IMG/VR virus record: IMGVR_UViG_3300048560_000012
Location: 1-41,151 of that record
Length of the DNA: 41,151 nt
Direction: 5' to 3' (one strand)
Source: a virus
Lineage: Duplodnaviria > Caudoviricetes
Made by a program: the position numbers and the translations under genes
Shown here: positions 2,134-34,828 of the stretch, piece by piece
Position numbering within the stretch: position 1 is the first letter of the stretch
How the letters are laid out: every line of letters starts with the position of its first letter
The notes under the pieces: model-generated
What the model saw: only the letters and a program-made list of their open reading frames with translations
What the model was told of the DNA's origin: nothing
Databases searched by the model: none

Positions 2134-3333
2134 ATGGCGCTCTTCAGCAAGATCCTCAGGTATTTTTCGGGCGGGGGGAGGACTCCCGGGTATCAATCGT
2201 CAGAGCCGAGCGGTGGCAGGCTCACAAAGCGGACAGTCACGGCGGACACGGCAATGCAACTGTCCGCCGTTTTCGCGTGCGTGCGACTGATCGCGGAAAC
2301 CATTGCGGGTCTTCCGCTGCGGTTTTACGAGCGGTCATCGGACGGGTCTCGCGTGCGAAACGAAAAGCATCCCCTGTATCGGCTCTTGAGCTACAAGCCG
2401 AACAGGTACCAGACGCGGGTCGAGTTCTTCGAAACGATCGTCATGCAATTAGCGCTCCATGGCAATGCGTATATCCATATCACTCGCAACGGCGGGGTCA
2501 TCATTTCATTGTTGCCTTTGATGTCCGTTCAGATGGCAGTCAAGTTGGATCTGCAGGGGAATGTGACGTATGAGTACAACGACGGCAGAAACTTGATGGT
2601 CTATGCGCAAGAATCCATCTGGCATATCAAATTGATGGGTAACGGACTGATCGGCATGTCGCCGTTGGACTACGCGCGGAATTCTATCGGGGTCGCCATC
2701 AGCGCGGAGGATCGGGTCAGCAAGATGTCGAATAACGGTTTCAAGCCGTCTGGTGTCTTGATGATCGACAAGGTGCTGAAGCCCGAACAGCGTGCGGCAG
2801 TCCGTGCATCGTTTGCCGATCTAGCCGAGGGGGGCGACGATGCGCTGAAAGTGCTGGAAGCCGGAATGACCTACCAGCAGGTCAGCATGAACCCGAAGGA
2901 TGTGCAGCTTCTGGAGACGAGGCGGTTTCAACTGGAAGATATCGCACGGTTCTTCGGCGTGCCCTCCGTGCTGATCAACGACACGTCGACTTCCACGGTC
3001 TGGGGGTCTGGCGTGGCGCAGATCGTGCAGGGATTCTACAAGCTGGGACTGCGCCCATATCTGGAACGGATTGAGTCGTCCCTGGAAATTTGGCTTCTTC
3101 CCATTATTGAACGCGGAGTGACAGAAGTAGAATTCGACTTCACGGCACTGCTTCGGGGAGACACTGCCGCAAGGTATGAAGCCTATGCCAAGGCGACGCT
3201 GAACGGGTTGAAGACGATCAACGAGTGTCGCTTGGAGGAAGGCGATCCGCCCGTACCGGGGGGTGAGGTAGCACGGACGCAACAGCAGATGATCCCCTTG
3301 ACCGCGTCCAACAGTTCGATCCCTGAGGGATGA
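2134..3333 (+). CDS. Portal protein, HK97 family
   Basis: SAVFACVRLIAETIAGLP, LALHGNAY, GMSPL, EDIARFFGVP. Confidence 0.95.
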   Translation: MALFSKILRYFSGGGRTPGYQSSEPSGGRLTKRTVTADTAMQLSAVFACVRLIAETIAGLPLRFYERSSDGSRVRNEKHPLYRLLSYKPNRYQTRVEFFETIVMQLALHGNAYIHITRNGGVIISLLPLMSVQMAVKLDLQGNVTYEYNDGRNLMVYAQESIWHIKLMGNGLIGMSPLDYARNSIGVAISAEDRVSKMSNNGFKPSGVLMIDKVLKPEQRAAVRASFADLAEGGDDALKVLEAGMTYQQVSMNPKDVQLLETRRFQLEDIARFFGVPSVLINDTSTSTVWGSGVAQIVQGFYKLGLRPYLERIESSLEIWLLPIIERGVTEVEFDFTALLRGDTAARYEAYAKATLNGLKTINECRLEEGDPPVPGGEVARTQQQMIPLTASNSSIPEG

Positions 3334-3359
3334 TACACTTTTCACTAGGAGTAAAGGCC

Positions 3360-4172
3360 ATGAGTCTTCGCAAATTACCCGAGATCAAAGCTCTTCAAGC
3401 GCCGAAGGGTGCGCAGTGGGATATTCCCTCCTCGGCGCTGGAGCGCTGGCGTCCTCTTGCTGAAGACCGCGAGGCGACGCTCAGCATCTACGAGGGTATC
3501 GGCGAACAGTGGGACGGTTCCGGCATGACGGCGAAGCGGGTCGGCGGCATCCTTCGCGCCAATGCCGGGAAGGACATCACGGTTTCGATCAACTCGCCCG
3601 GAGGCGATTTCTTTGACGGGATCGCCATCTATAACTTGTTGCGAGAGCATGATGGTGCGGTGAATGTCCGCGTCATGGCGCTGGCAGCGTCCGCAGCATC
3701 CATCATCGCGATGGCAGGAGACACGATCCAGATCGCGAAGGCCGGGTTCCTGATGATTCACAATGCGTGGTCTTTCGTTATCGGGAACCGTCACGACCTC
3801 AAGGAAGCAATCGGCGTGCTGGAACCGTTCGACACGGCAATGGCCGAAGTGTATGCCGACCGTTCCGGGATGGACGTTCGCGCCATTGCCAAGATGATGG
3901 ATGCAGACACATGGATCAATGGATCCGAAGCGCTGAAGCTGGGATTCGCGGATTCGTTATTGGACAAGGACACCGAGGAAGACCCGCAGGACAAGAGGAG
4001 CGCGTTGCTGCGGACGACCGACATCGCATTAGCAAAACAAGGCATCCCCCGTTCGCAGCGGCGGGAGATGCTGAACGAGTTGACTGGCACGCCGAGCGCT
4101 ACCAGTCGCATCACGCCGAGCGCTGATTTGGAAGTGCTGCAATCCCTATCTCAACTTTTCAAGAAGGAGTAA
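3360..4172 (+). CDS. ClpP-like (S14) head maturation protease
   Basis: INSPGGD, AASAASIIAMAG, LMIHNAW; ATG 3360 has an AGGAG SD, so preferred over track start 3330. Confidence 0.92.
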   Translation: MSLRKLPEIKALQAPKGAQWDIPSSALERWRPLAEDREATLSIYEGIGEQWDGSGMTAKRVGGILRANAGKDITVSINSPGGDFFDGIAIYNLLREHDGAVNVRVMALAASAASIIAMAGDTIQIAKAGFLMIHNAWSFVIGNRHDLKEAIGVLEPFDTAMAEVYADRSGMDVRAIAKMMDADTWINGSEALKLGFADSLLDKDTEEDPQDKRSALLRTTDIALAKQGIPRSQRREMLNELTGTPSATSRITPSADLEVLQSLSQLFKKE

Positions 4173-4176
4173 TACC

Positions 4177-5412
4177 ATGCAACAGTCTCACAAGAATGTC
4201 CGCGGTATTTTCGCGGTTCGTGCGGATGCGTCTCCGGCAGAACTGGTCGCCCAGATCAAGGCCGGATTCGAAACGTTCAAGGCAGCGCAAGCCGACACCG
4301 ACAAGCGCATCGAAGCCTATGCCAAGGCGCAAGCCGAGGGCGCCGCAACCGAAGCCAAGGCGGCTCTGCAAGCGGCCGAGGCGAGTGCCAAGCAAGTCCA
4401 GGCACTGGCCGATCGGCTGGTCGAGGCAGAGCAGAAGCTCATTGCCGGGGTGATGAAAGGCATTCAGGCGCCGCAGTCTTTGGGGGCGCTGGTCGTCGCG
4501 TCGGACGCATTCAAGCAGTTCCAGTCCGGCTCGACGAACAAGATGCGCATCGAAGCCAATACGATTACCGGTCAATCGGGTTCTCCGGTGGAGAACAACG
4601 ATACGCTGACGCAAACGCAGCGTCTCCCCGGTATCGTTGGCGGAGCGTTCCGTGCGCTGCGGATCCGTGACGTTCTGCCTTCGGGGAATACCGCGAGCAA
4701 CATCGTGGAGTTCACCCGGGAACTGGCCTTCACGAACAACGCGGCAGAAACGGCGGAAGGCGCGACCAAGCCGGAAACGTCCATCACCTTCGAGCTGGCG
4801 AATGCTCCGGTGCGCACCATTGCGCATTGGATCAAGCTGTCCCGTCAGGTGATGGACGATGCCCCGGCGGTTGCCAGCTATGTCGATACGCGTCTCCGTT
4901 ATGGCGTGGAACGTCGTATCGATGCGCAACTGATCGCCGGCAACGGCGTCGGCCAGAACCTTTCGGGTCTGACCAATTCGGGCAACTTCACAGCCTTTAC
5001 CCCGGTAACGGGAGACACGGCTCTGGACAGTCTGAACAAGGCCAAATATCTGATCGAAGCGTCCGACTACTCGGCGACCGCCATCGTCATGAATCCGGCG
5101 GACTGGGGTGCGATCGAACGCAACAAGACCAGCTACGGCGAATACGTGATCGGTGATCCGCGTTCGGCCATCGGTCCCGTTCTCTGGGGTCTGCCGGTGG
5201 TCGTGTCCAATTCCATGGTTTCGGGCAAACTGCTTGTCGGTGCCTTCGACATCGCCGCGCAGGTTTGGAACCGGGAAGGCGTTGCGGTCGAAATGACCGA
5301 AAGCAACGACACGGACTTCGTGAAGAACCTTGTCACTGTCCGTGCCGAAGCGCGTTTGGCGCTCGCTGTCTATCGCCCCGCGTCGGTCTACTACGGCAAT
5401 CTCACCCTGTAA
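4177..5412 (+). CDS. Major capsid protein, HK97 fold
   Basis: Coiled-coil delta domain, AEGATKPE, VRTIAHW, MNPADW, LWGLPVV, DFVKNLVTVRAEAR. Confidence 0.95.
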   Translation: MQQSHKNVRGIFAVRADASPAELVAQIKAGFETFKAAQADTDKRIEAYAKAQAEGAATEAKAALQAAEASAKQVQALADRLVEAEQKLIAGVMKGIQAPQSLGALVVASDAFKQFQSGSTNKMRIEANTITGQSGSPVENNDTLTQTQRLPGIVGGAFRALRIRDVLPSGNTASNIVEFTRELAFTNNAAETAEGATKPETSITFELANAPVRTIAHWIKLSRQVMDDAPAVASYVDTRLRYGVERRIDAQLIAGNGVGQNLSGLTNSGNFTAFTPVTGDTALDSLNKAKYLIEASDYSATAIVMNPADWGAIERNKTSYGEYVIGDPRSAIGPVLWGLPVVVSNSMVSGKLLVGAFDIAAQVWNREGVAVEMTESNDTDFVKNLVTVRAEARLALAVYRPASVYYGNLTL

Positions 5413-5436
5413 CGGGGGGTTTCACTTACCATGGAG

Positions 5437-5463
5437 CGGGAGAGGGAAACCTCTCCCGTTTTT
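5437..5463 (+). terminator. Intrinsic terminator after the MCP
   Basis: CGGGAGAGG-GAAA-CCTCTCCCG followed by TTTTT. Confidence 0.75.
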
Positions 5464-5466
5464 ACG

Positions 5467-5754
5467 ATGAAAGAATGTATCGCTTTAAAGGATTTCATCT
5501 CCCCCGTCTTCGGCAACGTGGATGAAGGGCGTCGTCTTCCATTGGAGGACAGAGCCGCTGCGCAATGGGAAGAAGCCGGTCTGGTGCGTATTGCTGTAGA
5601 TGTCTCGGTCGCTCCTGTGATTCCGTCGGTGGGAAACGCCGAGACCCTTGCGTCTTCGTCTGCATCGCAAGCGGTCCCAGCCTCACCGAAGCAGACTGCG
5701 AGCGCGTCCGCCTCTGGCGCGAAGAAGATCAGCAGGATGAAGTCCGGCGCGTAA
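5467..5754 (+). CDS. Small post-capsid protein, possibly head-associated, with Ser/Ala-rich C-tail (alternative start 5431)
   Basis: ALKDF..G.V..G...L.D..A..W...GLV resembles small domains encoded after MCP genes; low-complexity tail. Confidence 0.65.
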   Translation: MKECIALKDFISPVFGNVDEGRRLPLEDRAAAQWEEAGLVRIAVDVSVAPVIPSVGNAETLASSSASQAVPASPKQTASASASGAKKISRMKSGA

Positions 5755-7100
5755 TCGTAATCAATACGACGTTCAAGCTCGCTCCGTGGGCAGACTATCT
5801 TTATGCCTGTGACGCCGAATGGTGGAAGCGGTACCACCAGGAAGCCATGTCCGAATTTCGGGGAGAGCTCTGGACCCAGGACGAGCACGCGAGGGGGTAT
5901 GGCCAGATGCACCATGTACATGGAGAGCGCAAGTCTGGTCTCTGTACAGAACCCGGAAAAATCTATTTCGGTGGGAACAGCGGGTATCAGGCCATGAATC
6001 TCGCGTTCCATTTTGGTGCATTCCGAATGATTCTCCTCGGCTATGACATGCAGCAGACAGGGGGGAAATCTCATTGGCATGGGGATCACCCACAAGGATT
6101 GAGCCGGAGTTCTCCTTTGGGGGAATGGGTCAAGCAGTTTCGTTCTCTGGCAACTGACTTGAAGGCACAAGGAGTCAAGGTATTGAACGCGTCTCGTCAG
6201 ACTGCGTTGGACTGTTTCGACAGGTCGCCTCTGGAAGACGCGTTGAAGGTCACCGTCGTTGAAGGAATGCGTGGTCTCGGGGACAACATCTATCAACGCG
6301 CCTTTGTCAAAGCGATACCGGGGTCGGTCTATTTATCGACTCCGTGGCCGGAGCTCTACGCAGACCTGCCCAATGTTCGGTTCATGCTGGCCAGGACAAC
6401 GCTCCGTACTCAAGCAGAGAATATCTCACACCAGTCGCCGAAGACATGGCAGCTTCGGCCGCGCAATGCCGCAGAAGTGCAAGTGCAGTACGGGACGAAC
6501 AGTTTCAGGCGGGGGTCTTTGCTGGACGGAATGTCGCAATGTTTCGGTTTCCGTCCGCAGGAATTTGACTTGCCGTATTTCGGGGAGTGCCCGGTACAGA
6601 CAGACAAGCCGATCGCTCTGGTGCGTCCGGTGACAGTGCGCAGCGAGTGGCGTGCGGACGCCCGTAACCCCCTGCCAGAGTACGTTTCGATGGCCGCAGA
6701 GCGGCTTCGCGCGGTCGGGTACCACGTGGTCAGCGTTGCGCATTTGCGCCCCCCAGAGGAGGTTCTGGTAGGTTCTGCGCCTCCTGCGGATACGACACTG
6801 CATGCGGGGGAATTGGATGTACGGCAGTTGATGGCGCTTGTGCAGCATGCGCAAGTTCTTGTCGGCGGGGTCGGTTGGATAGTCCCCGCCGCTCTAGCTG
6901 CAAAGAAGCCGTGTCTTGTTATCGCTGGCGGACTAGGGGCGCACAATGCTCCGGAGAAGGTACTTCCGTCCGAGGGGGCGGAGCATGTGACATTTCTCCT
7001 TCCGGACAGATATTGTCGTTGTGACCAGATGCGGCATTCTTGCCAGAAGACAATTAGCGACATTGAGAAAAAGGTGGATACGTGGATAACGTCTCTCTGA
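5565..7100 (+). CDS. Two-domain glycosyltransferase: DUF115/Maf/sialyltransferase-like N-domain plus GT9-like GT-B domain (true N-terminus probably made by frameshift)
   Basis: CIASGPSL, VIVIN, NSGYQAMNLA..LLGYDM, VLNAS; then GMRGLGDNIY, TPWPELY, LVGGVGWIVPAALAA. Confidence 0.75.
   Translation: MGRSRSGAYCCRCLGRSCDSVGGKRRDPCVFVCIASGPSLTEADCERVRLWREEDQQDEVRRVIVINTTFKLAPWADYLYACDAEWWKRYHQEAMSEFRGELWTQDEHARGYGQMHHVHGERKSGLCTEPGKIYFGGNSGYQAMNLAFHFGAFRMILLGYDMQQTGGKSHWHGDHPQGLSRSSPLGEWVKQFRSLATDLKAQGVKVLNASRQTALDCFDRSPLEDALKVTVVEGMRGLGDNIYQRAFVKAIPGSVYLSTPWPELYADLPNVRFMLARTTLRTQAENISHQSPKTWQLRPRNAAEVQVQYGTNSFRRGSLLDGMSQCFGFRPQEFDLPYFGECPVQTDKPIALVRPVTVRSEWRADARNPLPEYVSMAAERLRAVGYHVVSVAHLRPPEEVLVGSAPPADTTLHAGELDVRQLMALVQHAQVLVGGVGWIVPAALAAKKPCLVIAGGLGAHNAPEKVLPSEGAEHVTFLLPDRYCRCDQMRHSCQKTISDIEKKVDTWITSL
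5631..5696 (+). promoter_or_regulatory. Putative -1 frameshift signal: G_GGA_AAC plus downstream hairpin/pseudoknot
   Basis: Heptamer in phase with the 5467 ORF; -1 frame is the GT ORF; stem 5643-5652/5666-5676 begins 5 nt downstream. Confidence 0.6.
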
Positions 7101-7702
7101 AAATGCAAGGTCTTTTATGGTGTGAAGCAGTTGGGATCGGGTACTATCCGGTCGACCCGAAAAGCACTCCGTACGACGAGGACTATTTCGCCAAGTATCA
7201 AGTCATGGAAGTGACTCCGCTGGGGGACGCTCTGGTAGCATCGCGTTTGGCATTGGTGCGGGGGCGGATGTCTCCCGCTGATGTGATCGACATCGGAATT
7301 GGAAGCGGTGCTTTTGTTCGTGCGGCAGACTGCGAAGGATACGACATCAATCCGTGTGCTGTTTCGTGGTTACGGGAGAACGCGAAGTGGCATGATCCGT
7401 ATGACGGGGATAAGGTAAGAGCGGTTTGTTGTTGGGATTCTCTGGAGCACATTCAGATTCCATCTGTTTTGCTGAATCAGGTATCTGAGTACGTCTTCTT
7501 ATCTATTCCGATTTTTCGGGACGCAGATCATGTTCTGCGGTCAAAGCATTTTCGGAAAGACGAACATTACTGGTACTTCACGGATTTGGGGTTGAAGCGG
7601 TTCATGAAGTACCATGGATTTGACTGTGTCGAGCAGAATGCGATGGAGACCGTTTTAGGTCGGGAAGACATAGGGTCTTACGTTTTCAGGAGAAAAGCAT
7701 GA
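7082..7702 (+). CDS. Class I SAM-dependent methyltransferase
   Basis: VIDIGIGSGAF, GYDINP, WDSLEHI, EHYWYFT. Confidence 0.8.
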   Translation: MDNVSLKMQGLLWCEAVGIGYYPVDPKSTPYDEDYFAKYQVMEVTPLGDALVASRLALVRGRMSPADVIDIGIGSGAFVRAADCEGYDINPCAVSWLRENAKWHDPYDGDKVRAVCCWDSLEHIQIPSVLLNQVSEYVFLSIPIFRDADHVLRSKHFRKDEHYWYFTDLGLKRFMKYHGFDCVEQNAMETVLGREDIGSYVFRRKA

Positions 7703-9764: not shown

Positions 9765-10114
9765 ACACTCCTCTGACACGTGATGCCATTCTGGCCGTCC
9801 CTGACCTCCAGACGGAAGTCGTGGACGTGCTGGAATGGGGCGGCAGCGTTATCGTCGGCACCATGACCGGGGCAGTGCGCGACGCGTGGGAGCGGTCTCT
9901 CGTTGATGCGAAGGGCAAGGTGAATATGGAGAACATCCGTGCTCGTCTTGTCGCTTGTACCGTCCTTGACGAGAACGGGGTGCGCATGTTCTCCGATACA
10001 GACATTGCGGCGCTCGGCAACAAGTCTGCCGCCGCGCTGGATCGGTGCGCGAAAGTGGCGCAGCGCCTCAATGGTTTGACCGCAGACGATCTGGAGACGG
10101 CAAAGGGAAACTGA
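9761..10114 (+). CDS. Tail assembly chaperone (lambda G-like)
   Basis: Lies between tube and TMP genes; EWGG.V; ends AKGN* at a slippery site; ATG overlaps the upstream stop. Confidence 0.85.
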   Translation: MNTPLTRDAILAVPDLQTEVVDVLEWGGSVIVGTMTGAVRDAWERSLVDAKGKVNMENIRARLVACTVLDENGVRMFSDTDIAALGNKSAAALDRCAKVAQRLNGLTADDLETAKGN

Positions 10115-10314: not shown

Positions 10315-12290
10315 GTTCCCTCGGCAGTCTTGTCGTATCCATCACAGCGAACACTGCGCGGTTCGCTTCCGACATGGGCAAGGCCGCGCATATCGCGGCG
10401 CAGAACATGGAGAAGATGCGCAAGGATGCAGAGCAGGTCGGCAAGGCGATCGGAGCAATGTTCGCTGTCGGTGCATCCGCATCGGTCTATCTAGTCAAGC
10501 AATCGTTGGACTCCGCCGACGCAATGCTCAAGATGTCTCAGTCTGCCGGCATTGGGATAGAGAAGCTCACCGGCTTTGCGTATGCCGCACGTCTCTCGGG
10601 GTTAGAGGCGGACACTTTCGGAACGTCGGCAGTACGCTTGACCAAGGGCATCAGTGATGCTGCGATGGGCACCGGCGAAGCGCTTCGTGCATTCAGTGCT
10701 CTCGGGATGAACGTCAAAGACGCTTCAGGTAAGTTGAAGTCCGCAGATACGGTGATGACCGAGGTCGCCGCCAAGTTCTCCAAGATGGAGGATGGCGCGG
10801 AAAAGACTGCGCTCGCTATTGCGCTGTTCGGGAGAGCAGGAGCGCAGATGATTCCGTTCTTGAATCTCGGCGCGGATGGTCTTGCCAAGATGCACGCCGA
10901 AGCCAAAGCACTTGGTCTTGTTTTGGACAAGGATACAGGGGAAGCGGCAGAGCGCTTTAACGACAACCTGACGCGGCTCAATGCCGTGAAGGAAGGGTTC
11001 GCTAATCAGATCATGCGAGCCATGCTTCCGTCGCTTGAAGGTCTCAGTCGTTGGCTCTTTGAGTCCACAAAGAATTCGGACGGCCTCAGCAAAGCGGCAA
11101 CCATCGTAGCGGGGTCACTGAAGACGCTGATGTCTGCGGGGGTTATAGTCGCAGGGGTGTTCAAGACCCTCGGCGAATCCCTCGGCGGCATCGCGGCAAC
11201 ATTGGTCGCGTTGTTCTCTGGCCGCTTCAAGGAAGCGTTCAACATCTACATGGACAGCACTGCGGATTTCGCCACGAACATACGCGGAACCGTCGGTGCG
11301 GTCACGGCTATCTGGGATGAAGCCGCGACACAGACCGCTGCGAACGCTCCCGCGAATGGAGACAAGCTGGCAGCACCAGTGATGCACGCGACAAAGAAAG
11401 TGAAGAAGGGGGTAGACGACCAGATCACGCAGATGCGCAAGCTCGGCGCGGCATACGCCAGTGTCTTTACCGCATCGTCAAAGCGGGTCAGCACTCTAGA
11501 GGAGCAGATTGCCAAAGGGCGAGAACTTACTCAGTCCGAGCAAACGTTGCTTGAGATCGAGAAGCAGTTCCCGGCTGAGTGGATTGCATCTCTTCGTCTG
11601 TTGCTCGAACGTGCCGATGCGCTGGAAAAGCAACGGGCGACACAGCAACGGATAAACGAACTGATCGCAGCGACTCCGACCGCGCAGCTCGAAAAGCAGC
11701 GGGAGGAGATGATCATGTTGGCGGAGGTCTATGAGAAAACCGGCATGAGCGCTGAGAAGTATTACGAGATTGTAACGGAGGCGCTTCCGAAGCTCAAGAA
11801 ACCGCTTGACGAAATGACGGAATTCGCCAAACAAGCCGCACGCAACATGCAGGATGCGATGGGGGATTTCTTCTTCGACGCCATGGAGGGCAAGCTCAGT
11901 GATCTTGCCGGGAACTTCACGAAGACGATCAACCGTATGGTGGCGAATCTGCTCGCCAGTCAGCTCATGAACTACCTTACGGGTGACTTCGGCAGTACGG
12001 GTCAAATGGGTGGAGCGATCGGAAGCATTTTCGGCAGCTTGTTCGGTGGGTCTCGCGCTATCGGCGGCCCTGTCAGTGCGGGATCTGCGTATCGTGTCGG
12101 CGAGTTCGGGGAGGAGGTCTTTATTCCGCAGACCAGCGGAACGGTTGTTCCCACAGACCGTGCGTCATCGCGCAGCGTGATCATCACAAATAACTTCACG
12201 ATCAGTCAGCCGACAGACCGGCGGACGCAGGAACAGATCGCATCACTGGCAGGGGCGTCTATCCAGACGGCAATGTCAAGGGGGTCGTAA
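10311..12290 (+). CDS. Tape measure protein
   Basis: Ala-rich helical 659 aa; LGSLVVSI N-term; RAIGGPV..Y.VGE.GEEVFIP C-term. Confidence 0.92.
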   Translation: MSSLGSLVVSITANTARFASDMGKAAHIAAQNMEKMRKDAEQVGKAIGAMFAVGASASVYLVKQSLDSADAMLKMSQSAGIGIEKLTGFAYAARLSGLEADTFGTSAVRLTKGISDAAMGTGEALRAFSALGMNVKDASGKLKSADTVMTEVAAKFSKMEDGAEKTALAIALFGRAGAQMIPFLNLGADGLAKMHAEAKALGLVLDKDTGEAAERFNDNLTRLNAVKEGFANQIMRAMLPSLEGLSRWLFESTKNSDGLSKAATIVAGSLKTLMSAGVIVAGVFKTLGESLGGIAATLVALFSGRFKEAFNIYMDSTADFATNIRGTVGAVTAIWDEAATQTAANAPANGDKLAAPVMHATKKVKKGVDDQITQMRKLGAAYASVFTASSKRVSTLEEQIAKGRELTQSEQTLLEIEKQFPAEWIASLRLLLERADALEKQRATQQRINELIAATPTAQLEKQREEMIMLAEVYEKTGMSAEKYYEIVTEALPKLKKPLDEMTEFAKQAARNMQDAMGDFFFDAMEGKLSDLAGNFTKTINRMVANLLASQLMNYLTGDFGSTGQMGGAIGSIFGSLFGGSRAIGGPVSAGSAYRVGEFGEEVFIPQTSGTVVPTDRASSRSVIITNNFTISQPTDRRTQEQIASLAGASIQTAMSRGS

Positions 12291-12862
12291 TGCCATTCAT
12301 AGAAACGCGGTTCCCGGTAGATATCAGCTACGGCGTGGTCGGTGGCCCCGGTTTCAAGACAGATGTCGTCGTGGTCAATTCCGGGTTCGAGCAGCGGAAC
12401 GCAGTGTGGGAAGACTCCCGTTGTATGTGGGATGCAGCGCATGGGCTAAAGACACAAGATCAGCTCGACACGTTGATCGCCTTCTTCCGCGTGATGAAAG
12501 GCCGCGCCAATGGATTTCGCTTCAAAGACTGGACAGACTTCTCGGTCGGCTCGGGGGAGGGGATCTTCCGTCCTCTTTCGGGTACTACGTTTCAGATGGT
12601 GAGACGCTATACCACGGCAGGGAACAACCAAGATCGTGATATTTCCAAGCCGGTCAGCGGTACTATCGTCGTGACGGGGGGCACCGGTGTTTCAGTCAAT
12701 TACACTACGGGTGTCGTCACTGTTACCAGCGGCACGCCGACCGCTTGGACAGGGGAATTTGATGTTCCCGCACGTTTTGACACAGACCAGATGAAGGTGA
12801 GTATCGAAGACTATAACGCTTATACGTGGGGGCAGATTCCCGTTTTGGAGATTCGGGTATGA
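12290..12862 (+). CDS. DUF2460 GTA-like distal tail protein
   Basis: RFPVDISYG..GGP, SGFEQRN..W, GFRFKDWTD, FDVPARFDTD. Confidence 0.9.
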   Translation: MPFIETRFPVDISYGVVGGPGFKTDVVVVNSGFEQRNAVWEDSRCMWDAAHGLKTQDQLDTLIAFFRVMKGRANGFRFKDWTDFSVGSGEGIFRPLSGTTFQMVRRYTTAGNNQDRDISKPVSGTIVVTGGTGVSVNYTTGVVTVTSGTPTAWTGEFDVPARFDTDQMKVSIEDYNAYTWGQIPVLEIRV

Positions 12863-13695
12863 GGACGGTCAGCGCAAACCTGAAAGCACATCTACAGGGG
12901 GAGCATCTCACCATCTGTACGTTCTGGAAGATTACCCGTACAGATTCGCAAGTATTCGGCTTCACCGATAACTCGCGGGATGTGACGTACGACAGCGTTC
13001 TCTACGAGGCCGCAACAGGGCACGCCCCGAGCAGCATCAAGACCACATCTGATCTCGGCGTCGACAATCTGGAAGTTGAGTCTATCCTGGATTCCAGTAC
13101 GATCACAGAAGCAGATCTTCAGGCTGGACTATGGGATTACGCTACCGTGGAAATCATGGTGGTTAATTACAAATCCCTCGCTGACGGCCATATGATGCTG
13201 CGCAAAGGGTGGGTCGGCAACGTCAAAACGGGACGGTCTAATTTCGTTGCCGAGCTTCGCGGCATGATGCAACCGTTACAGCAAACCATCGGCAGGGTAT
13301 ATACCCCGGCATGCGATGCGGCTCTCGGAGATGCTCGCTGCGGGGTCAACATCGGCAGCTATACCGTAACGGGCAGCGTAACTACGCCGACCAGCGGTCG
13401 CGTCTTTACGGACTCCGCACGTACCGAGGCGAACGACTACTTTGCCGGGGGACTGATTACTTGGACGTCTGGGGATAATGACACGTACCAGATGGAGGTC
13501 AAAAGCTCTACATCTGTCGGGGTGATCACGTTGCAACAGGCGATGCCGAGCGGCACCACGATCGGTGACACGTACAGCTTGTCAGCGGGGTGCAACAAGC
13601 TACTGACAACCTGCCGAGACAAGTTCAACAATGTCGTCAACTTCCGGGGATTCCCTCATGTTCCCGGCTCAGACAAAGTGATTGCAGGAAGATGA
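12859..13695 (+). CDS. DUF2163 GTA-like baseplate hub protein
   Basis: FGFTD, FVAELRG, CDAALGDARC, GCNK...CRDKFNNVVNFRGFPHVPG. Confidence 0.9.
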   Translation: MRTVSANLKAHLQGEHLTICTFWKITRTDSQVFGFTDNSRDVTYDSVLYEAATGHAPSSIKTTSDLGVDNLEVESILDSSTITEADLQAGLWDYATVEIMVVNYKSLADGHMMLRKGWVGNVKTGRSNFVAELRGMMQPLQQTIGRVYTPACDAALGDARCGVNIGSYTVTGSVTTPTSGRVFTDSARTEANDYFAGGLITWTSGDNDTYQMEVKSSTSVGVITLQQAMPSGTTIGDTYSLSAGCNKLLTTCRDKFNNVVNFRGFPHVPGSDKVIAGR

Positions 13696-14096
13696 AAGAC
13701 TACGTCATCGTCGCACGTGGATATCTCGGCACTCCTTTCCGTCATCAGGCGCGACTGCCCGGTATTGGTTTGGACTGTGCCGGATTGATCGTCTGCGCAT
13801 TGCAGGAAATTGATTACCCTGTCGAGGACGTCCGTGCGTACGGCCGCATTCCCGCCAATGGGCTTTTTGTCAGGATGGTCGAGCGGCACTGTGACCATAT
13901 CGCCATTGCTGATTTGCGGCACGGCGACTTAATGATGTTCGCCTTCCGCGGCGAGCCGCAGCACTTGGCGATCTATACCGCCGAGGGCACGATCATCCAC
14001 GCATATCAAGAAGTCCGGAAGGTCGTCGAACATGACTTTGACGGCATCTGGCGCGAACGCTTGCGCGGTTGTTTCCGTCTCAGGGAGATCGGGTAA
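13692..14096 (+). CDS. NlpC/P60 tail peptidase
   Basis: GTPFRHQ, GLDCAGL, QHLAI, IIHAY. Confidence 0.9.
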   Translation: MKDYVIVARGYLGTPFRHQARLPGIGLDCAGLIVCALQEIDYPVEDVRAYGRIPANGLFVRMVERHCDHIAIADLRHGDLMMFAFRGEPQHLAIYTAEGTIIHAYQEVRKVVEHDFDGIWRERLRGCFRLREIG

Positions 14097-17000
14097 ATGG
14101 CTTCCCTCGTTCTTGGTGCGGTCGGCGCGGCTGTCGGTGCGGGGATCGGTGGTACCTTCCTTGGCATGTCCGCGGTCTCGCTTGGATGGAGCATCGGCTC
14201 CACCCTTGGCAGCATGCTCTTCAGCAACAAGGCAAAAGGCCAGGACATCTTGCAGGAAGGGTCGCGCCTCGGCGACCTCAAGGTGCAGACCTCCACTTAT
14301 GGCAATCCCCTTCCAATTTTCTACGGCAGCATGCGCGCGGCTGGAAACGTTATTTGGTCGACCGACATCGTCGAGACCCGGCATACCAGCACGCAATCCT
14401 CCGGCGGCGGCGGCAAGGGTGGCGGCGGTGGGGGCGGCGGCAGTACAGTTACGACGATCACCTACACCTATTCACAATCCTTCGCGGTGGCGATCGGCGA
14501 AGGCCCGATCACAGGCATCCGCAAAATCTGGGCGAACGGGAAGCTGATCTACAACCTGTCGGATTCCGCATCGCTTGCCACCATCGCCGCGAGCACGGCG
14601 GCAGTCAGCGGCATCCGCGTCTATACCGGCTCGGAATCGCAGACCGCCGACAGCCTGATCCAGGCCAACGTCGGCGCGGCGAATGCCCCGGCCTATCGCG
14701 GCACGGCCTACGTCGTGTTCAGCAGCCTGCAACTCGCCGACTACGGCAACCGGATGCCGAACGTCGAGTTCGAGGTCGTGGTGGCTGGGAATGTAGCGGA
14801 ATTGGCAACGTCCGATTTGACGCTTCCGTCTTCCAGTGATTGGGTGGCGTCGGCGTTTGGGAATGGGATGTTTCTTGTATTGAACAAGGGCCTTGCCGGT
14901 TTTCCGACGCCGGTTATCTCTCTGCGTTCTTATGACGCAGGTGCTAACTGGTCGTCATCACTGACGAACATGTCTTATTCTGTCTATCACTGCATTTTCG
15001 TATCGGGATTATTTTACGCAGGTACATCGACGGGGGTCTGGCGTAGTGCGGACGGGATCACATGGGCACAAGTCAAGTCCGGGATTACAGCAACAGCGCT
15101 AGCCTATGGTGATGGAATCATTTATGCGACCGCAAACGGATCAAGCGTTGTTTGGGCTTCCGGCGATGGATTGAACTGGGTTGCTTTCTCAATCAGCGGC
15201 ACCAACGCTTCATGGTTTGGCGTTGCCGCTGGGAATGGGATCGTTGTCGTAACTGCCAATGGCTCTAGCGCGGTTGCGCGCATTGCCTCTAACTGGCAGC
15301 CAATCACCATCGCATCATTGACAGGATACTTGCGGGTAGCTTACGGCAACGGCTTGTTTGTCGCAGCCGGTGGGAACGGCATGGCATATTCGACGGATGG
15401 AATTAATTGGACTGCCGGCGCTTCAGTCCCTGCTTCCGATCCGCAAAATGCTGTTTTTGGTGGAGGCAGCTTTGCCATCGTTGCCGGGGACAAAGTGTAC
15501 GTCACGTCTGACGGCATTACGGTTGTCTCGCATATAGAGACTGGACGGGTGTTTACTGGCCTATCCTATGGTGGCGGCATTTTCATTTCTCCAGCAGACA
15601 GTAGCACTTACGCTATAGGGTTCCTCCCCGCCCCCGTCATCAGCAGCGTCGCTGCGCCGCAATGCTCCACCATCGTTTCGGATATTTGCGAACGCACAGG
15701 GCTGACTACCAGTCAGATCAATGTCGCCGCATTGACTGACGAGGTGCATGGCTACGTCGTGCAGCGCTCGTCCGCGCGCTCGCAGATCGAGCAGTTGATG
15801 CGCGCCTTCTATTTTGATGCTGTCGAATCCAGTGGCAAGGTGAAGTTTGTCAAGCGTGGATCATCCTCGGCGCTCACAATTCCAGAAGACGATCTTGCGG
15901 CGCACGAGTACGGCTCCTCCCTGCCTGACACGGCGGTGATAGACCGCAAGCAAGAGATGGAACTCCCGCTGGAAACAGACATCCAATACCTTGACACTGG
16001 TGCGGCTTACCAAGTCGGTGCGCAGTACTCGCAGCGCCTCACCACTGAGAGCGAAAACAAGATCTCGTTGAACTTCGCCATTGCCATGAGCGCGATCAAG
16101 GCGAAGGAGATCGCTGACGTATTGATGTACGACGCATGGACAGGGCGGACACAGTTCAGTTTTCAGACAGGGTGGAAATATTCCTACCTCGAACCGACCG
16201 ATGTGTTCAGCATCGTTAAGGATGGACGCACATACGTCATTCGCCTCCAAGATGAAAACGTCAGCGTCATCAGCGCACGTCGCGCCGTGCTGGAAGACCC
16301 TTCTGTCTATACACAGTCAGGTGCAGCGGCGGAGATCATCGCGCCCGACGAGGATGTTGCGCTGACGCCGCTGACCAAGCTGATGTTGATGGACATCCCG
16401 CTCTTGCGCGATCAGGACGATGGCGTCGGCTTCTATGCCGCTGCATGCGGCTATGGTGCGGGGTGGTACGGAGCGCAAGCATACAAGTCCTCTGACGCTG
16501 GAGCAACGTGGGGCAGCTTTGGTCAGGGTTTCTTGAACGACGTAACGATGGGTTCAGCGACGAACGCCCTTGGCGATTTCACACGAAACGAGTTTGACGA
16601 AAAGAACAGTGTCACCGTTGTTCTCGTCAATGGCGAGCTCTCCAGCGATACCGAACTGAACGTGCTCAATGGGGCGAACGCCGCGTTGCTCGGCAGTGAG
16701 ATCATCCAGTTCAAAACGGCGACACTTATCGCGGCTGACACATACACCCTCACAGGTCTTCTCCGGGGTCGTAGGGGCACGGAATGGGCAACGGCAACCC
16801 ATGCGGCGGGGGATCGCTTTGTGCTGCTCGACGCCCTCTCTACGTATATTCTGGAAGGGTCTAGCACGGAATACGACCTAGAGCGGCATTACCGGGGGGC
16901 GTCATTCGGCGGCTTCCTCGACGAGGCAGAGACTGTTGCTTTTACCAATACCGCCGTTGCGCAGATGCCTTTTTCTCCTGTCTTGCTTGGCGGTGGGCGC

Positions 17001-17300
17001 AACGCGGCGGGAGATATCATCCTTAATTGGACGCGACGGACTCGCATCAGCGGGGGGTGGAACAGCTACGCGGACGTCCCGCTTGGCGAGGCAAGTGAGA
17101 TCTACACGGTAGAGATCTACAGCAATTCGGGATACGGAACCGTTTTGCGCACGATCACGGGTCTCACGTCTCCGACCACGGCCTACACTGCCGCGCAGCA
17201 GACAACTGACTTCGGCTCGCCACAATCGACTATATACTGGAAGGCATATCAAGTATCGTCAGTGGTGGGGACTGGATATGAAGCGAGAGGAGTAACCTAA
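14097..17300 (+). CDS. GTA-like central tail tip / host specificity protein with internal beta-propeller-like insert
   Basis: YG.PLP..YG.MR..GNVIW, PAYRGTAYVVF, LLRGRRGTE, WTRRTR, VPLGE. Confidence 0.88.
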   Translation: MASLVLGAVGAAVGAGIGGTFLGMSAVSLGWSIGSTLGSMLFSNKAKGQDILQEGSRLGDLKVQTSTYGNPLPIFYGSMRAAGNVIWSTDIVETRHTSTQSSGGGGKGGGGGGGGSTVTTITYTYSQSFAVAIGEGPITGIRKIWANGKLIYNLSDSASLATIAASTAAVSGIRVYTGSESQTADSLIQANVGAANAPAYRGTAYVVFSSLQLADYGNRMPNVEFEVVVAGNVAELATSDLTLPSSSDWVASAFGNGMFLVLNKGLAGFPTPVISLRSYDAGANWSSSLTNMSYSVYHCIFVSGLFYAGTSTGVWRSADGITWAQVKSGITATALAYGDGIIYATANGSSVVWASGDGLNWVAFSISGTNASWFGVAAGNGIVVVTANGSSAVARIASNWQPITIASLTGYLRVAYGNGLFVAAGGNGMAYSTDGINWTAGASVPASDPQNAVFGGGSFAIVAGDKVYVTSDGITVVSHIETGRVFTGLSYGGGIFISPADSSTYAIGFLPAPVISSVAAPQCSTIVSDICERTGLTTSQINVAALTDEVHGYVVQRSSARSQIEQLMRAFYFDAVESSGKVKFVKRGSSSALTIPEDDLAAHEYGSSLPDTAVIDRKQEMELPLETDIQYLDTGAAYQVGAQYSQRLTTESENKISLNFAIAMSAIKAKEIADVLMYDAWTGRTQFSFQTGWKYSYLEPTDVFSIVKDGRTYVIRLQDENVSVISARRAVLEDPSVYTQSGAAAEIIAPDEDVALTPLTKLMLMDIPLLRDQDDGVGFYAAACGYGAGWYGAQAYKSSDAGATWGSFGQGFLNDVTMGSATNALGDFTRNEFDEKNSVTVVLVNGELSSDTELNVLNGANAALLGSEIIQFKTATLIAADTYTLTGLLRGRRGTEWATATHAAGDRFVLLDALSTYILEGSSTEYDLERHYRGASFGGFLDEAETVAFTNTAVAQMPFSPVLLGGGRNAAGDIILNWTRRTRISGGWNSYADVPLGEASEIYTVEIYSNSGYGTVLRTITGLTSPTTAYTAAQQTTDFGSPQSTIYWKAYQVSSVVGTGYEARGVT

Positions 17301-25572: not shown

Positions 25573-26193
25573 TTAGTCGCCGCTGTCGCTGCTACTGTCG
25601 CTGCTACTGTCGCTGCTACTGTCGCTGCTACCGCCGCTGTCCCACCCCCCGGATGCACCTGCTCCGCTCATTTCGCCGCCTTTGCCGCTGAAGGATTCAC
25701 TTTCTTGCACGGGCAATAGAACTGGGATATCGACGGCGATCGCTGAAGGCTGATTCAGGATTGGAGAAGTAGTACCCGAAGACTGATCTTGATCGACGTA
25801 CCCCTTCGCGGTCGGTTCGCCTTCGGCTTCCGCTTCCATGAGCAATGCTGTCAATTCCTTTTCAGCATAGTCATACTGCCCTACAGTTATTGCGGCGATG
25901 ATATTGCATTCGCGATAACCGAGCAGGTTCCCCCGACAGAAGCCACCGGACGGCGGAGTATGACTGGTCGTTGTCCAACCAAGTGCTAACCAGTCTATTT
26001 CCTGGAACTTCTGCATGAAGTGCATCGCCTTGCGCAGATCGGTGATGCCACCCTTCTTACGCCAGCGCGAGACGTACTTGGTGATGCACCCTTTGAAGTA
26101 CCCCGGCCCGTAGCACGCGGCAGCGAAATCCCAATGTTGCATCTTGTCTGAACGGTAGTGATCTCCACCGATTTGAATGTCATTAGCGGCCAT
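25573..26193 (-). CDS. DUF3310 / T7 gp1.7-like putative nucleotide kinase with Gly/Ser tail
   Basis: QIGGDHY, QHWDF, GCITKYVSRW.KKGG..DL.KA.HF. Confidence 0.75.
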   Translation of the reverse strand: MAANDIQIGGDHYRSDKMQHWDFAAACYGPGYFKGCITKYVSRWRKKGGITDLRKAMHFMQKFQEIDWLALGWTTTSHTPPSGGFCRGNLLGYRECNIIAAITVGQYDYAEKELTALLMEAEAEGEPTAKGYVDQDQSSGTTSPILNQPSAIAVDIPVLLPVQESESFSGKGGEMSGAGASGGWDSGGSSDSSSDSSSDSSSDSGD

Positions 26194-26686
26194 GTTTCTC
26201 TCCTGTCAGTACAGCGTTGAAAAATGCAGCGGCACGATCATTGGGGTGACGCACTCGCTGCATGACGTGATCCATCCCGCGTCTCATGATCTCTCTGGCG
26301 TATGCGTTGCCCATGCACCATTCTTCCCGACACCAGAGCACGAGCTCCATCGCGTCACACCATTTGAGGACGTGCTTCTGGTACGGAGTGAGGTCGATCG
26401 CAGTGCCAAAGCGTGCGTCATACTCGGCTTCCACTTCAGTCAGTACGGCGGCAAGCTGAGGATTGTCCCACTTGGCCGGGGCGGGGATGTCGCCAGTGGC
26501 GGCTTCGCTCAGGTCGTGGTAAAGCGCAGCACGCACCAGCAGGAAGTCTGTCGGCTCTACTTCCAGCACGAGCATGGCGACCCCGTAGCTATGTTCGGCG
26601 ACGGTCTGTTGCCGGGTCATTCGCGCAGTGTGAAAGCGCACCACGGCAGAGGCATCGCGCAAAGCTTGGATGCGATAGTAGCTCAT
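26183..26686 (-). CDS. HD-domain 5'-deoxynucleotidase (YfbR-like)
   Basis: V.RFHT, QTVAEHSY, ALYHDLSE..TGDIP.PAK, KWCD. Confidence 0.88.
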   Translation of the reverse strand: MSYYRIQALRDASAVVRFHTARMTRQQTVAEHSYGVAMLVLEVEPTDFLLVRAALYHDLSEAATGDIPAPAKWDNPQLAAVLTEVEAEYDARFGTAIDLTPYQKHVLKWCDAMELVLWCREEWCMGNAYAREIMRRGMDHVMQRVRHPNDRAAAFFNAVLTGEKHGR

Positions 26687-27687
26687 GCTACGATCTCCGG
26701 TTGTCTGCGATCAATGCGCCGCTGGATCCAGTCGACGCATGCTTTGCGCCAATCTGGAACGGGGATTTCTGTAGCATACCGCCGAGCCGTGCGAAGCATT
26801 CCTGCCCGATAGCAAGCATGAGCTTGCTTCATGCAGAGTGCTGTCCGAAAAAATTCAGAATTGTAAAATACTCTTTGATAAGGAAGGTGGAACACTCTGA
26901 TGTCTTCGTCCAGATCTTCGGGATACACTGCCCGATTCCAAAGTGATGGCGAATCTATGCAAAGCATATCTGACGCATACGGATCATAGACGGTAACGCC
27001 GTGGTCTGCCTTGTGTGCTTGCCAGTACGGATTGTCCTCGTAGACATGCAAGCTGTCACTGACTTGGGTGTAGCGACCGACCGCTACCCCGACCCGCATG
27101 GCAACGTATTGCAGTAGGAAGCTGAACTGAACCGCGTTCGCGCCGTATGCTCCCCAGATGGCGTCGTTGCTGCGGTTGCAGACGGTCATATGCAGCTTGC
27201 CGTCACGGATCTTGAACATCACCATGTCGTTGCAGGGGATGTCCTTGCTGTCCGTGCCGAGGTCCAGCCGGGGGTCGTAGATGGAGATCACGGCGCGACG
27301 CGTGTCCGGCTGAATTTTCAAAAGATCCACGACCCTATCCAGTTGATCCATGCCGAACGCTGACCGAAGGCGATATCCATATGCGCCATGGAACGTCGTG
27401 CCGTTGTCACTGTATTCAGCAATCCGTGGCAGGTAACGCGCCGGAGTGGCGACGTCCTGTCCGCCGTTGAGGATCCACAGCGCCTCGAAGAAATGGAAGA
27501 ACGGGTTAGCGTCCCGTTCGGCGTCAAACAGGACGCATTCTTGCGGACAGTAGTAGACCGTGGCAACCGGCTCCGGGTACTCTATTACCTTCATCCCACG
27601 AGACACTCTCGGCACTCCACGTTCGCGCAGATGCAGCAATGCGAGCGGAAGCGCTTCATTGACGTTGCGTACATTCAAGACCAACAT
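26683..27687 (-). CDS. Thymidylate synthase-family dUMP hydroxymethylase
   Basis: RDANPFF, GAYGYRL, DIPCND, NRSND.IWG..GAN (Asn at the dUMP-specificity position), SLHVY. Confidence 0.85.
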   Translation of the reverse strand: MLVLNVRNVNEALPLALLHLRERGVPRVSRGMKVIEYPEPVATVYYCPQECVLFDAERDANPFFHFFEALWILNGGQDVATPARYLPRIAEYSDNGTTFHGAYGYRLRSAFGMDQLDRVVDLLKIQPDTRRAVISIYDPRLDLGTDSKDIPCNDMVMFKIRDGKLHMTVCNRSNDAIWGAYGANAVQFSFLLQYVAMRVGVAVGRYTQVSDSLHVYEDNPYWQAHKADHGVTVYDPYASDMLCIDSPSLWNRAVYPEDLDEDIRVFHLPYQRVFYNSEFFRTALCMKQAHACYRAGMLRTARRYATEIPVPDWRKACVDWIQRRIDRRQPEIVA

Positions 27688-28535
27688 GATTTCTCCTTGT
27701 CGGCGAGGCCGGGGTACGTCGCACGCGGACGGCCCTCGCCGTTCAGTGTCCGCATGTACTTATCGAATTCGCACAGACAGTTCTGCAAGTCTTGCGCATG
27801 GATGCCGCGGATACCTTCTTTCTCCAACAACGGAAGGATTTGTCTGTGAAGATCTTGTAATGCGTTGAGCCAGTCGGCTTCCCTCCATGGATCTTTCACC
27901 GGACGACCCAGAACGCGGTTGAGGCCGCGACGACTCCCCGGCCCTGACGCCGCCCATGTATCCCAGTCCGGTGCTCCTGCGAGTGGCGAGACGTACTTGA
28001 GGTCAGCGACTACTTGCGCCGACATGAAACTGCCCATGCCGTTAAAGCGTGACAGCCGCGCATGGTACGACGCTAGGGGTTCCCCGAAGTATGGCCGCAG
28101 GGACGCACGAGAAGCCCAGAGAGGGGTCAATACGTGCTTGGCAAGGTAGTCGGCCTTGTCCATGGCGTGGCCGTTTGTGCTGACGATGTACGCCCCGCTG
28201 AACGCTTTCTTCCCTTGTGTTTGACGGTCATGCATCGCCTTGAGAAACCGCTTTGGGTTCCACGGCACCGGGTAGCCGATTTCACGCAGCGTCTCCGGCC
28301 AATTGATCAAGCGCGCGACTACCATTGCAAACCATTCGTCTTCCAATATTCCTTCAAGTGGGTCACGCCAGTTCTGCGCGATCCACTTTGTCACCGTGTC
28401 ATGCTCGCGACGGACATTGCAGAAACGGTACGACTGCAGGATCAGGTCTTTCGTCCAAGGTTTCGGCTCGCCGCGTTGCCGCTTCAAGCGAATAGATTCC
28501 CGCTCCTTGATCCAGTAGATGAGTTTCTTGATCAT
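27675..28535 (-). CDS. 5-hydroxymethyluracil DNA kinase-like (aGPT-Pplase1 family)
   Basis: WIKERESI...PWT.D.IL..YRFCNVRREHD, F...QVVADL, GPGS.RGL, QNCLCEFDKY. Confidence 0.85.
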   Translation of the reverse strand: MIKKLIYWIKERESIRLKRQRGEPKPWTKDLILQSYRFCNVRREHDTVTKWIAQNWRDPLEGILEDEWFAMVVARLINWPETLREIGYPVPWNPKRFLKAMHDRQTQGKKAFSGAYIVSTNGHAMDKADYLAKHVLTPLWASRASLRPYFGEPLASYHARLSRFNGMGSFMSAQVVADLKYVSPLAGAPDWDTWAASGPGSRRGLNRVLGRPVKDPWREADWLNALQDLHRQILPLLEKEGIRGIHAQDLQNCLCEFDKYMRTLNGEGRPRATYPGLADKEKSCWS

Positions 28536-28771
28536 GACAGTAGCTCCTCTCCTTCAGTCCATTTGATCATTTTGTCGACACCCTTGAACACTACCGCCGC
28601 ACGCTCTGGCGAGATCATGCCGACGTGGATGCGGTCGCCGAACACTTGCGCGACGACACAGGTGGTCTGTCCCTTGGCACTGAGACGTTTGACTTCTCGC
28701 TGAAATCCGGCTTTCTCAATCGCGCGTTGCTGTCGCGCTGTTAGCTTGAGTACGAGAAACGGGTAAGACAT
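28532..28771 (-). CDS. Hypothetical protein
   Basis: AGGAG SD; ATGA-coupled to the kinase gene. Confidence 0.65.
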   Translation of the reverse strand: MSYPFLVLKLTARQQRAIEKAGFQREVKRLSAKGQTTCVVAQVFGDRIHVGMISPERAAVVFKGVDKMIKWTEGEELLS

Positions 28772-28807
28772 CGTTTGCTCCTAGTGTAACGGGATGTTCA
28801 GAATAAC

Positions 28808-28836
28808 AAGATAGTCCAGTCAAGTAAATGTGTCAA
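28808..28836 (-). promoter_or_regulatory. Sigma70-like promoter (TTGACA-17-TATCTT)
   Basis: Consensus -35, optimal spacing, intergenic. Confidence 0.7.
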
Positions 28837-28846
28837 TGGAGTGCAG

Positions 28847-34270: not shown

Positions 34271-34828
34271 TTAAATGAGGTCTTCCGCAGCGTCCTCGAC
34301 GGGGTCGACTCCGGCTCTCGGCCTTGCGGGGGTGCTACCTCCCTTGCTGGTAGCCTTGGAAGGCGTCGACGGCTTGCTCGACGGCCCGACAACCTTCACA
34401 GCGACCCCCGTTGCGACGCCAGCATAGAGCCGCTTGTCGTCCCCCTTGTAGAGCCGCAGTTTGCCGAGACGGAAGCCATGCTTTGCACTGACCCGTGCCA
34501 TCTTGTTCGTCAGATTGAGATCGCTGAGTGCGATCGGTTTTCCGGCCTCCTTGACGGCGACGAGAATGGATTCCACCGCCATGTCCAGAACTAGCAAGGT
34601 GCTTTCCCGCCGTTCACGCTTGGACGGGTAGGCTGTCTTTGCAACCAGGGTCAGCTTGACCTCGCTGCTTGACGACACGGCCTTCTTCGGCGCGGCCTTC
34701 TTCGGCGCGGCCTTCTTCGGCGCGGCCTTCTTCGGCGCGGCCTTCTTCGGCGCGGCCTTCTTCGGCGCGGCCTTCTTCGGCGCGGCCTTCTTCGGCGCGG
34801 CCTTCTTCGGTACAGGTTTTGTAGCCAT
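34271..34828 (-). CDS. Histone H1-like (PKKAA)x9 DNA-binding protein
   Basis: Basic repeats; possible winged-helix core. Confidence 0.75.
   Translation of the reverse strand: MATKPVPKKAAPKKAAPKKAAPKKAAPKKAAPKKAAPKKAAPKKAAPKKAVSSSSEVKLTLVAKTAYPSKRERRESTLLVLDMAVESILVAVKEAGKPIALSDLNLTNKMARVSAKHGFRLGKLRLYKGDDKRLYAGVATGVAVKVVGPSSKPSTPSKATSKGGSTPARPRAGVDPVEDAAEDLI
34678..34810. repeat. 15-bp perfect tandem repeat, about 9 units (CCTTCTTCGGCGCGG)
   Basis: Read directly. Confidence 0.95.

Follow-up and report, generated by a model that had tools for sequence, protein, structure and literature searches.

A predicted −1 frameshift joining a gpFI-like domain to sugar-transferase-like domains in the head module of tailed phages

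Introduction

Extension of the capsid protein by −1 frameshifting is known from phages T7/T3 (gp10B), Lactobacillus phage A2 and Listeria phages A118/A500 (PMC5009743). The locus described here is similar in that −1 frameshifting of a head-module gene would add a C-terminal domain to a minority of the protein made. In those systems, however, the capsid protein itself is lengthened, mostly by an Ig-like domain, whereas here a separate small protein would acquire one or two enzyme domains; the shift analysed here also differs in lying mid-gene, with a 38-codon 0-frame tail retained (PMC5009743).

In phage TP901-1, a frameshift from the capsid protein into a gpFI-like protein was proposed, and was not seen on blots (PMC4493119). 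A small post-capsid gene, the fold of the gpFI C-terminal domain and a frameshift proposed in the same neighbourhood are shared with TP901-1 and lambda gpFI. The shift proposed for TP901-1, however, runs from the capsid protein into the gpFI-like protein, whereas here it would run from the gpFI-like domain into a transferase (PMC4493119), and the gpFI-like domain is N-terminal here and C-terminal in lambda gpFI. The gpFI protein bridges the capsid and the terminase-DNA complex (PMC13595911, PMC4493119).

In E. coli, shifting with the IS3 pseudoknot was observed for the tetramers A_AAG, U_UUY, C_CCY and A_AAA (Sharma 2014, PMC4066793), and stimulators start 5-8 nt downstream of the slip site. 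In the same study, G_GGA_AAC was classed as a low-efficiency heptamer that is nevertheless likely used, a class that fits a minority fusion. The motifs at the present loci (C_CCY, U_UUY, A_AAG, G_GGA_AAC) are those that are shift-prone or used by IS elements in E. coli, and, as in the IS3 family, Z_ZZN tetramers or heptamers lie 5 nt before a pseudoknot. Unlike IS3, the context is the phage head and the structure lies in doubly coding sequence; furthermore, C_CCU dominates here, and is absent from the tetramers that PMC4066793 names as common in IS elements. The tail assembly chaperone pair G/GT is also comparable, since the same heptamer is used in the genome studied here and the ratio of two products is set; however, its 0-frame stop follows the site immediately and both of its products are chaperones.

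Glycosylated capsids are known in mycobacteriophages (PMC11256854), and phage-encoded glycosyltransferases were proposed to modify the capsid in the glycosylated Che8 virion (Freeman 2023, via PMC11256854). In the related mycobacteriophage of PMC11256854, the glycosyltransferase genes lie near the 3′ end of the genome and the hosts are different; neither a frameshift nor a docking domain is mentioned there. No report of a frameshift from a gpFI-like domain into a transferase was found in the literature searched, coverage of which was incomplete; the prophage-candidate tables of Sharma 2014 could bear on this point. Frameshifts in phage head genes are already known; the arrangement described here, in which the predicted shift runs from a gpFI-like domain to a transferase, is real and widespread.

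Results

The locus and its junction

The DNA analysed (the window) is a 41-kb (41,151-nt) IMG/VR virus record. Its head module is of the HK97 type, its tail includes GTA-like genes, and base-modification genes are found in its replication arm. Bioreactor metagenome runs contain sequence near-identical to the window. The capsid protein gene is followed by a small ORF, a glycosyltransferase (GT) ORF, a methyltransferase gene and a head-tail connector gene. The features of the locus are as follows.

4177..5412, plus strand: HK97-type major capsid protein (Pfam PF05065, E 6.5e-49)
5438..5465, plus strand: intrinsic-terminator-like hairpin and T run, directly 5′ of the small ORF
5467..5754, plus strand: small ORF, 0-frame product of 95 aa, a folded N-domain followed by a Ser/Ala/Pro-rich, Lys/Arg-ended tail
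5467..5604, plus strand: N-domain (about aa 1-46), predicted L9-N/GINS-B/gpFI-C fold, DUF7210-related (model pLDDT 83.6)
5565..7100, plus strand: GT ORF, 511 aa, in the −1 frame relative to the small ORF
5565..5567, plus strand: ATG in frame with the GT ORF, probably incidental
5637..6251, plus strand: GT1, transferase of predicted Maf/CstI-like fold, −1 frame (phrog_4603, E 2.6e-53)
6255..7100, plus strand: GT2, GT9/heptosyltransferase-like domain fused to GT1 (phrog_6804, E 9.7e-99)
7082..7702, plus strand: SAM methyltransferase (PF13489, phrog_6564), a frequent companion of GT2 by co-occurrence

The coordinates and lengths of the two overlapping ORFs in a preliminary description of this DNA were verified, and the length of the −1 fusion was recomputed as 544 aa. 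The ATG at 5565 is the sole ATG/GTG/TTG ahead of the first GT motif, with a GGAGG 16 nt from it. The suspicion that this ATG is spurious is backed by L130, the closest relative fetched, which lacks it and in which TGGGAAA persists in a diverged linker.

No indel was present at the junction in two IMG/VR copies, in contigs of three DNA runs (one of which may be the source of the window) or in contigs of five RNA-library runs, bearing in mind that contigs drop rare variants. The junction is therefore not an assembly slip.

The small protein had been described as abundant. This description fared less well, as the terminator-like hairpin separates the small ORF from the capsid gene, and both products may be made well below the capsid level. 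L130 retains the hairpin with compensatory changes, and terminator-like hairpins precede the small ORF in 20 of 55 loci with the same overlap (dual-coded loci, defined below). RNA-library contigs ended at 5406-5413 in four of five runs and at 5450 in the fifth, which is a weak hint; RNA contig depths cannot rank genes and were not used as evidence of expression.

Slip site and predicted RNA structure in the window

5631..5637, plus strand: slippery heptamer G_GGA_AAC, in phase (G_GGA_AAA at the equivalent place in L130)
5643..5676, plus strand: stem 1 of the predicted pseudoknot (5643-5652 with 5666-5676), 5 nt past the heptamer
5658..5696, plus strand: stem 2 of the predicted pseudoknot (5658-5663 with 5691-5696)
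10105..10111, plus strand: slip site of the tail assembly chaperone, the same heptamer, before the tail-chaperone stop (internal comparison)

GGGAAAC is read in phase (G GGA AAC) and, as had been noted, matches the in-phase tail-chaperone site exactly. The spacer (GCCGA) is 5 nt, stem 1 has 10 bp with one bulge (−13.1 kcal/mol), and its loop GTCTGC is complementary to GCAGAC, which would complete a pseudoknot. The spacing of this predicted 3′ stimulatory structure falls within the 5-8 nt range.

Taken singly, these features of the window do not exceed chance. GGGAAAC occurs eight times in the window, compared with 4.45 expected; folding downstream of the heptamer was not unusually stable relative to shuffles when the window sequence was considered alone (z −0.8 to −1.1); and the minimum free energy fold of the single sequence was a hairpin other than stem 1. 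No Rfam family was found for the element, and the two weak sub-threshold matches were both on the terminator. The significance of the signal thus comes from the homologues and not from the window sequence alone. The tail chaperone gene G, for its part, has its probable start at ATG 9761 rather than 9656, with a −1 extension to 10314 and a hairpin following the slip site.

Homologous loci

Relatives of GT1 were collected from IMG/VR, GenBank phages and genomes. Of 127 loci, the GT1 profile matched 115. Anchoring on the motif was possible for 108, sufficient sequence upstream was available for 105, and dereplication at 85% left 74; a scan of genome contigs with one protein gave one useful locus of 13. 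Seven loci without the anchor motif were left out (L020, L024, L029, L054, L056, L094 and L103), of which L029 (TvS20) has the same overlap and C_CCT_TTG. Loci were termed dual-coded if a 0-frame ORF beginning with ATG read through the GT start without a stop. In 55 of the 74 loci, including the window copy, D3 and Psp6, the small post-capsid ORF overlapped the transferase in the same 0/−1 phase, and in 19 it did not. The same phase offset was present in 59 loci, in which the core GT1 proteins are 37-88% identical. The N-domain profile, which was built largely from these loci, matched 54 of the 55.

A capsid gene was present in 53/55 dual-coded loci and in 4/19 others. Those four (L009, L017, L052 and L055) have the N-domain fused in frame (three by HMM and one by eye), and the protein database held two further in-frame fusions of the N-domain and GT1 (P0127 and P0137). 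A capsid-adjacent GT1 is therefore always joined to the N-domain in the sampled loci, either in frame or through the −1 overlap. In a quick tree of GT1 with weak deep support, seven putative in-frame fusions were scattered (seven changes); four of these had been called by eye (L052, L096, L116 and L121), L096 with a probability of only 8%, and no well-supported branch contradicts a single origin. In a few dual-coded loci (L016 at 2444-3519, L060 and L122) a non-capsid gene precedes the small ORF, a head completion protein in the case of L016, so that the position of the pair in the head module is not fixed.

An in-frame ATG, GTG or TTG upstream was found in 10/55 dual-coded loci compared with 19/19 of the others. 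The remaining 45 dual-coded loci had no such codon, and some have just 4-10 open codons. In stand-alone GT1 genes (P1 pmgO, PAJU2, Colossus and Eowyn), the gene's own ATG lies 8-16 codons ahead of the motif.

Conservation of the heptamer in homologues, which the preliminary description had named as a check, was found: an in-phase XXXYYYZ lay within 120 nt in 38/55 dual-coded loci, counted irrespective of where the last −1-frame stop lay, against 10/55 and 13/55 in the two other phases and 2/19 among the other loci. In a held-out metagenome set of 46 loci, 19 of them usable after filtering, the in-phase heptamer was present in 4/4 capsid-adjacent loci and 1/15 others. Dual-coded loci without a heptamer mostly carry a tetramer, usually C_CCT. 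L064 had no candidate slip site, and about a dozen loci had a site without a predicted adjacent hairpin. A −1-frame stop lies 12-30 nt before the motif in L021, L063, L069, L073 and L074, which would limit the shift to the slip codon and a few more. G_GGA_AAA is found 81-90 nt before the motif, together with a proline-rich linker, in L061, L076, L087, L089, L117 and L126.

The spacing to stem 1 was similarly restricted to the dual-coded loci. A Z_ZZN in phase and separated from stem 1 by exactly 5 nt was present in 21/55 of them and 0/19 others, that is, in 21 of the 31 loci where a 5-nt spacer falls in phase (background 9.9%), in a narrow search that was set after the pattern had been noticed and in which the 3′ arm was fixed on the A-S-G-P codons. 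A wider first duplex search, with over-extended stems, placed only 10/55 at spacers of 4-7 nt, and the spacer count is thus method-dependent. In four of the 21 (D3, L048, L049 and L105), the site is either a weak tetramer or the initial half of a heptamer.

Covariation of the predicted structures

Stem 2 formed a duplex of −10 kcal/mol or stronger in 17 of the 21 spacer-5 loci, which had been picked without regard to stem 2, in 8/34 other dual-coded loci and in 0/34 non-frameshift loci. As it is scarcer in the other dual-coded loci, a strong stem 2 is not produced by double coding alone. In a hand-picked alignment of 22 loci, 83.9% of cells were paired in the pseudoknot, compared with 29-55% in slid controls, and 7 of 19 pairs were altered on both sides, a result reached by 1 of 500 shuffles. 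The difference in the energy of stem 1 was modest (median −13.8 vs. −11.1, p 0.028), and p-values overstate, since the loci are related by descent.

A clade of six loci has its AAC_CCY site 40 nt further upstream, and a different long hairpin, with 9 of 19 pairs compensatory, starts 5 nt after it. The earlier proposal of a −1 frameshift, with its site and pseudoknot, is thus backed by the homologues through their lack of starts, in-phase motifs, 5-nt spacing and covariation. We infer that a −1 frameshift very probably yields a fusion of the N-domain and the transferase.

Phage D3 and relatives

The same signal is carried by the cultured phage D3, with its heptamer at 5837 of AF165214.2 and a predicted fusion of orf6.5 and orf7 of 239 aa. 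C_CCA_AAG precedes the GT motif in L026 (D3, AF165214.2 5691-6409) and in L176 and L177 (the group comprising D3, PP9W2 and phage 5399). The GT gene of PP9W2 and D3 orf7 are annotated from internal starts, the latter beginning 29 codons past the G-x-S motif, and the small ORF is unannotated in phage 5399; the GT gene of the window itself had been called at 368 aa. The frameshift would account for D3 orf7 and its relatives having been annotated as truncated or missed.

The small ORF and its N-domain

The N-domain model matched the C-terminal domain of lambda gpFI (2lsm; Z 5.3, rmsd 1.3, 43 residues aligned), within a group of matches to the GINS B-domain, primase, gpFI, L9 and YqbF that lie about 1 Z unit apart (Z 5-6.4). 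The sequence match to 2lsm had an E of 0.26, and Pfam Packaging_FI matched none of 48 N-domain members. DUF7210 matched 9 of the 48 aligned members, and the window's own copy had no match. Foldseek against the PDB gave nothing at E ≤ 0.001 for the N-domain or GT1; the fold matches came from VIA searches. The lambda gpFI gene is positioned after the capsid gene, and its C-terminal domain was reportedly found by Popovic in 2012 to be the head-binding part. PF05065 was present upstream of the small ORF in 46 of the 52 loci scanned, and gpFI is favoured over folds of the GINS and L9 type because the small ORF sits after the capsid gene. The 95-aa product is likely a gpFI-like packaging helper, and the N-domain probably binds phage heads. 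The idea of capsid targeting gains support from the gpFI-like fold match together with the natural in-frame fusions. The gpFI-like character of the domain suggests a role at proheads within the cell more than as a decoration of finished virions.

The 0 frame remained open for 43 nt or more beyond the motif in 55/55 dual-coded loci. The definition requires 40 nt of this, but none of the loci in which the N-domain matched in the 0 frame had an earlier stop. In 20/34 other loci a stop occurs by +28. The 0-frame tail is Ser/Thr-rich and is net positive in 52/55 loci (median +5, compared with +2.5 for the same frame of other loci). As the 0 frame stays open and the tail is basic, the short product looks to be under selection too.

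The transferase domains and the methyltransferase

The GT1 model (pLDDT 90.8) shares its fold with Maf (5mu5; Z 15.4, rmsd 2.4, 170 residues aligned) and the Campylobacter enzymes CstI/CstII (CstI 2p56, Z 9.7). Their sequences differ, however, with 12-14% identity and no sequence-profile match. The PHROG label of GT1 is 'alpha-2,3-sialyltransferase'; no match was found for GT1 in Pfam, NCBIfam or PDB sequences, and its profile against PDB sequences returned only noise. GT2 had no direct Pfam match, and its NCBIfam matches were weak (E 0.02-0.03); its Atlas cluster was PF01075 (87%, score 0.97) and its homologues are annotated as GT9. The 'two-domain glycosyltransferase' described earlier therefore stands as two transferase-like domains, but these appear to be two different enzymes, a Maf/CstI-like GT1 and a GT9-like GT2. 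In D3, PAJU2 and Psp6, each is encoded by a gene of its own. Among 49 dual-coded loci with 2 kb of downstream sequence, GT2 was present in 17 and the methyltransferase in 8. Many phages (P1, PAJU2 and Colossus) have a GT1 with no N-domain, and tethering is thus not required for the GT1 family. Maf and CstI use CMP-sugars, and Maf glycosylates flagellin. Judged by fold, the donors are likely a CMP-sugar for GT1 and a heptose-type donor for GT2.

A base-modification cluster lies at 26183-29638 on the minus strand, with an HD nucleotidase, a thymidylate-synthase-like gene, PF18723 (5-hmdU DNA kinase helical domain) and PF20691 (TET-associated glycosyltransferase). It suggests a hypermodified, possibly glycosylated pyrimidine.

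Discussion

Proposed mechanism and alternatives

On reaching G_GGA_AAC, ribosomes held by the predicted pseudoknot 5 nt downstream probably slip back by one base. The majority would keep the frame and make the 95-aa protein, with its folded domain and basic tail, and a minority would make the 544-aa fusion, whose gpFI-like domain would dock two sugar-transferase-like domains on the head. The fusion would likely modify head proteins with host nucleotide sugars, and the adjacent methyltransferase may finish the glycan. We consider a −1 frameshift fusion that docks sugar-transferase-like domains on the phage head to be the best explanation of the whole, with a probability of roughly 0.8. For head proteins as the acceptor of the glycan, the odds appear about even. 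A more detailed proposal can be put forward tentatively, namely that in a widespread set of HK97-type phages of Gram-negative hosts, D3 included, a pseudoknot frameshift makes a fraction of the chaperone into a prohead-docked glycosyltransferase that, with the GT9-like enzyme and the methyltransferase, builds a host-envelope-like glycan (e.g., Kdo/nonulosonate-heptose) on the phage's own capsid. Recoding would then act like an address label that directs glycosylation to the virion; the Kdo/heptose part is speculation from fold labels.

The same fusion could instead act on another target, such as DNA at the packaging site, the Ser/Thr-rich tail of the small protein or the host surface (receptor masking). 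Since gpFI bridges the capsid and the terminase-DNA complex (PMC13595911), DNA would be within reach of the enzyme. The genome also has a separate base-modification cluster, the 0-frame tail is rich in Ser/Thr, and GT2 is similar to LPS heptosyltransferases. However, a dedicated DNA glycosyltransferase (PF20691) is already present among the replication genes, the GT1 fold is like that of Maf, a protein-glycosylating enzyme, and the GT1 homologues of PAJU2 and Eowyn carry the annotation 'structural protein', albeit as a label only. Together with the known glycosylation of mycobacteriophage capsids (PMC11256854), these points make another target the less likely reading.

Independent initiation of the transferase, at ATG 5565, a non-standard codon or an internal Met, with the overlap as ordinary gene compaction, is improbable. 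The window does have an in-frame ATG, ten dual-coded loci have some upstream start, and annotators picked internal starts for D3 orf7 and PP9W2. Nevertheless, 45/55 loci lack any ATG/GTG/TTG, ATG 5565 is missing in L130, internal starts would remove the conserved first strand and the G-x-S motif, and the fixed 5-nt spacing would be left unexplained.

Transcriptional slippage, RNA editing or a ribosomal hop might also make the fusion in place of −1 tRNA slippage, as long runs occur in some homologues (T9 in L004; A8-A9 in L016 and L021) and a few have no clear site. Most sites, however, are mixed motifs without a long run, in phase and 5 nt from an RNA structure, and the RNA-library contigs, which miss rare forms, are free of indels across the site; this origin is very improbable. 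The relatives with in-frame fusions might suggest that an in-frame fusion gene has been broken or that the assembly is wrong; this reading is largely refuted by the recurrence of the phase offset in 59 loci, cultured phages included, in which both frames stay open, and by the indel-free junction in several runs.

If the frameshift reading is correct, phages would have a further conserved and common recoding event in addition to the frameshifts of the tail chaperone and of capsid extension, and the part appended would be an enzyme and not a structural domain. The loci also form a naturally occurring set of slip sites in bacteria, with C_CCU tetramers as the prevailing motif, in which two unlike stimulators both begin after a 5-nt spacer. 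The finding would also suggest that capsids are glycosylated in phages of Proteobacteria, and could help to identify the binding partners of gpFI-like domains.

Additional observations

In Citrobacter phage phiNP (L030, locus 2450-3050), a stand-alone GT1 ORF that lacks annotation lies just upstream of a gene annotated as 'alpha-2,3-sialyltransferase'. In the window, gene-transfer-agent-type tail tip genes (DUF2460, phiJL001 gp84/BR0599, NlpC/P60 and Rcc01698-like) are present at 12290-17300 alongside the HK97-type head, and an ORF at 34271-34828 on the minus strand has a histone-H1-like, low-complexity N-terminus (weak PF07382 match).
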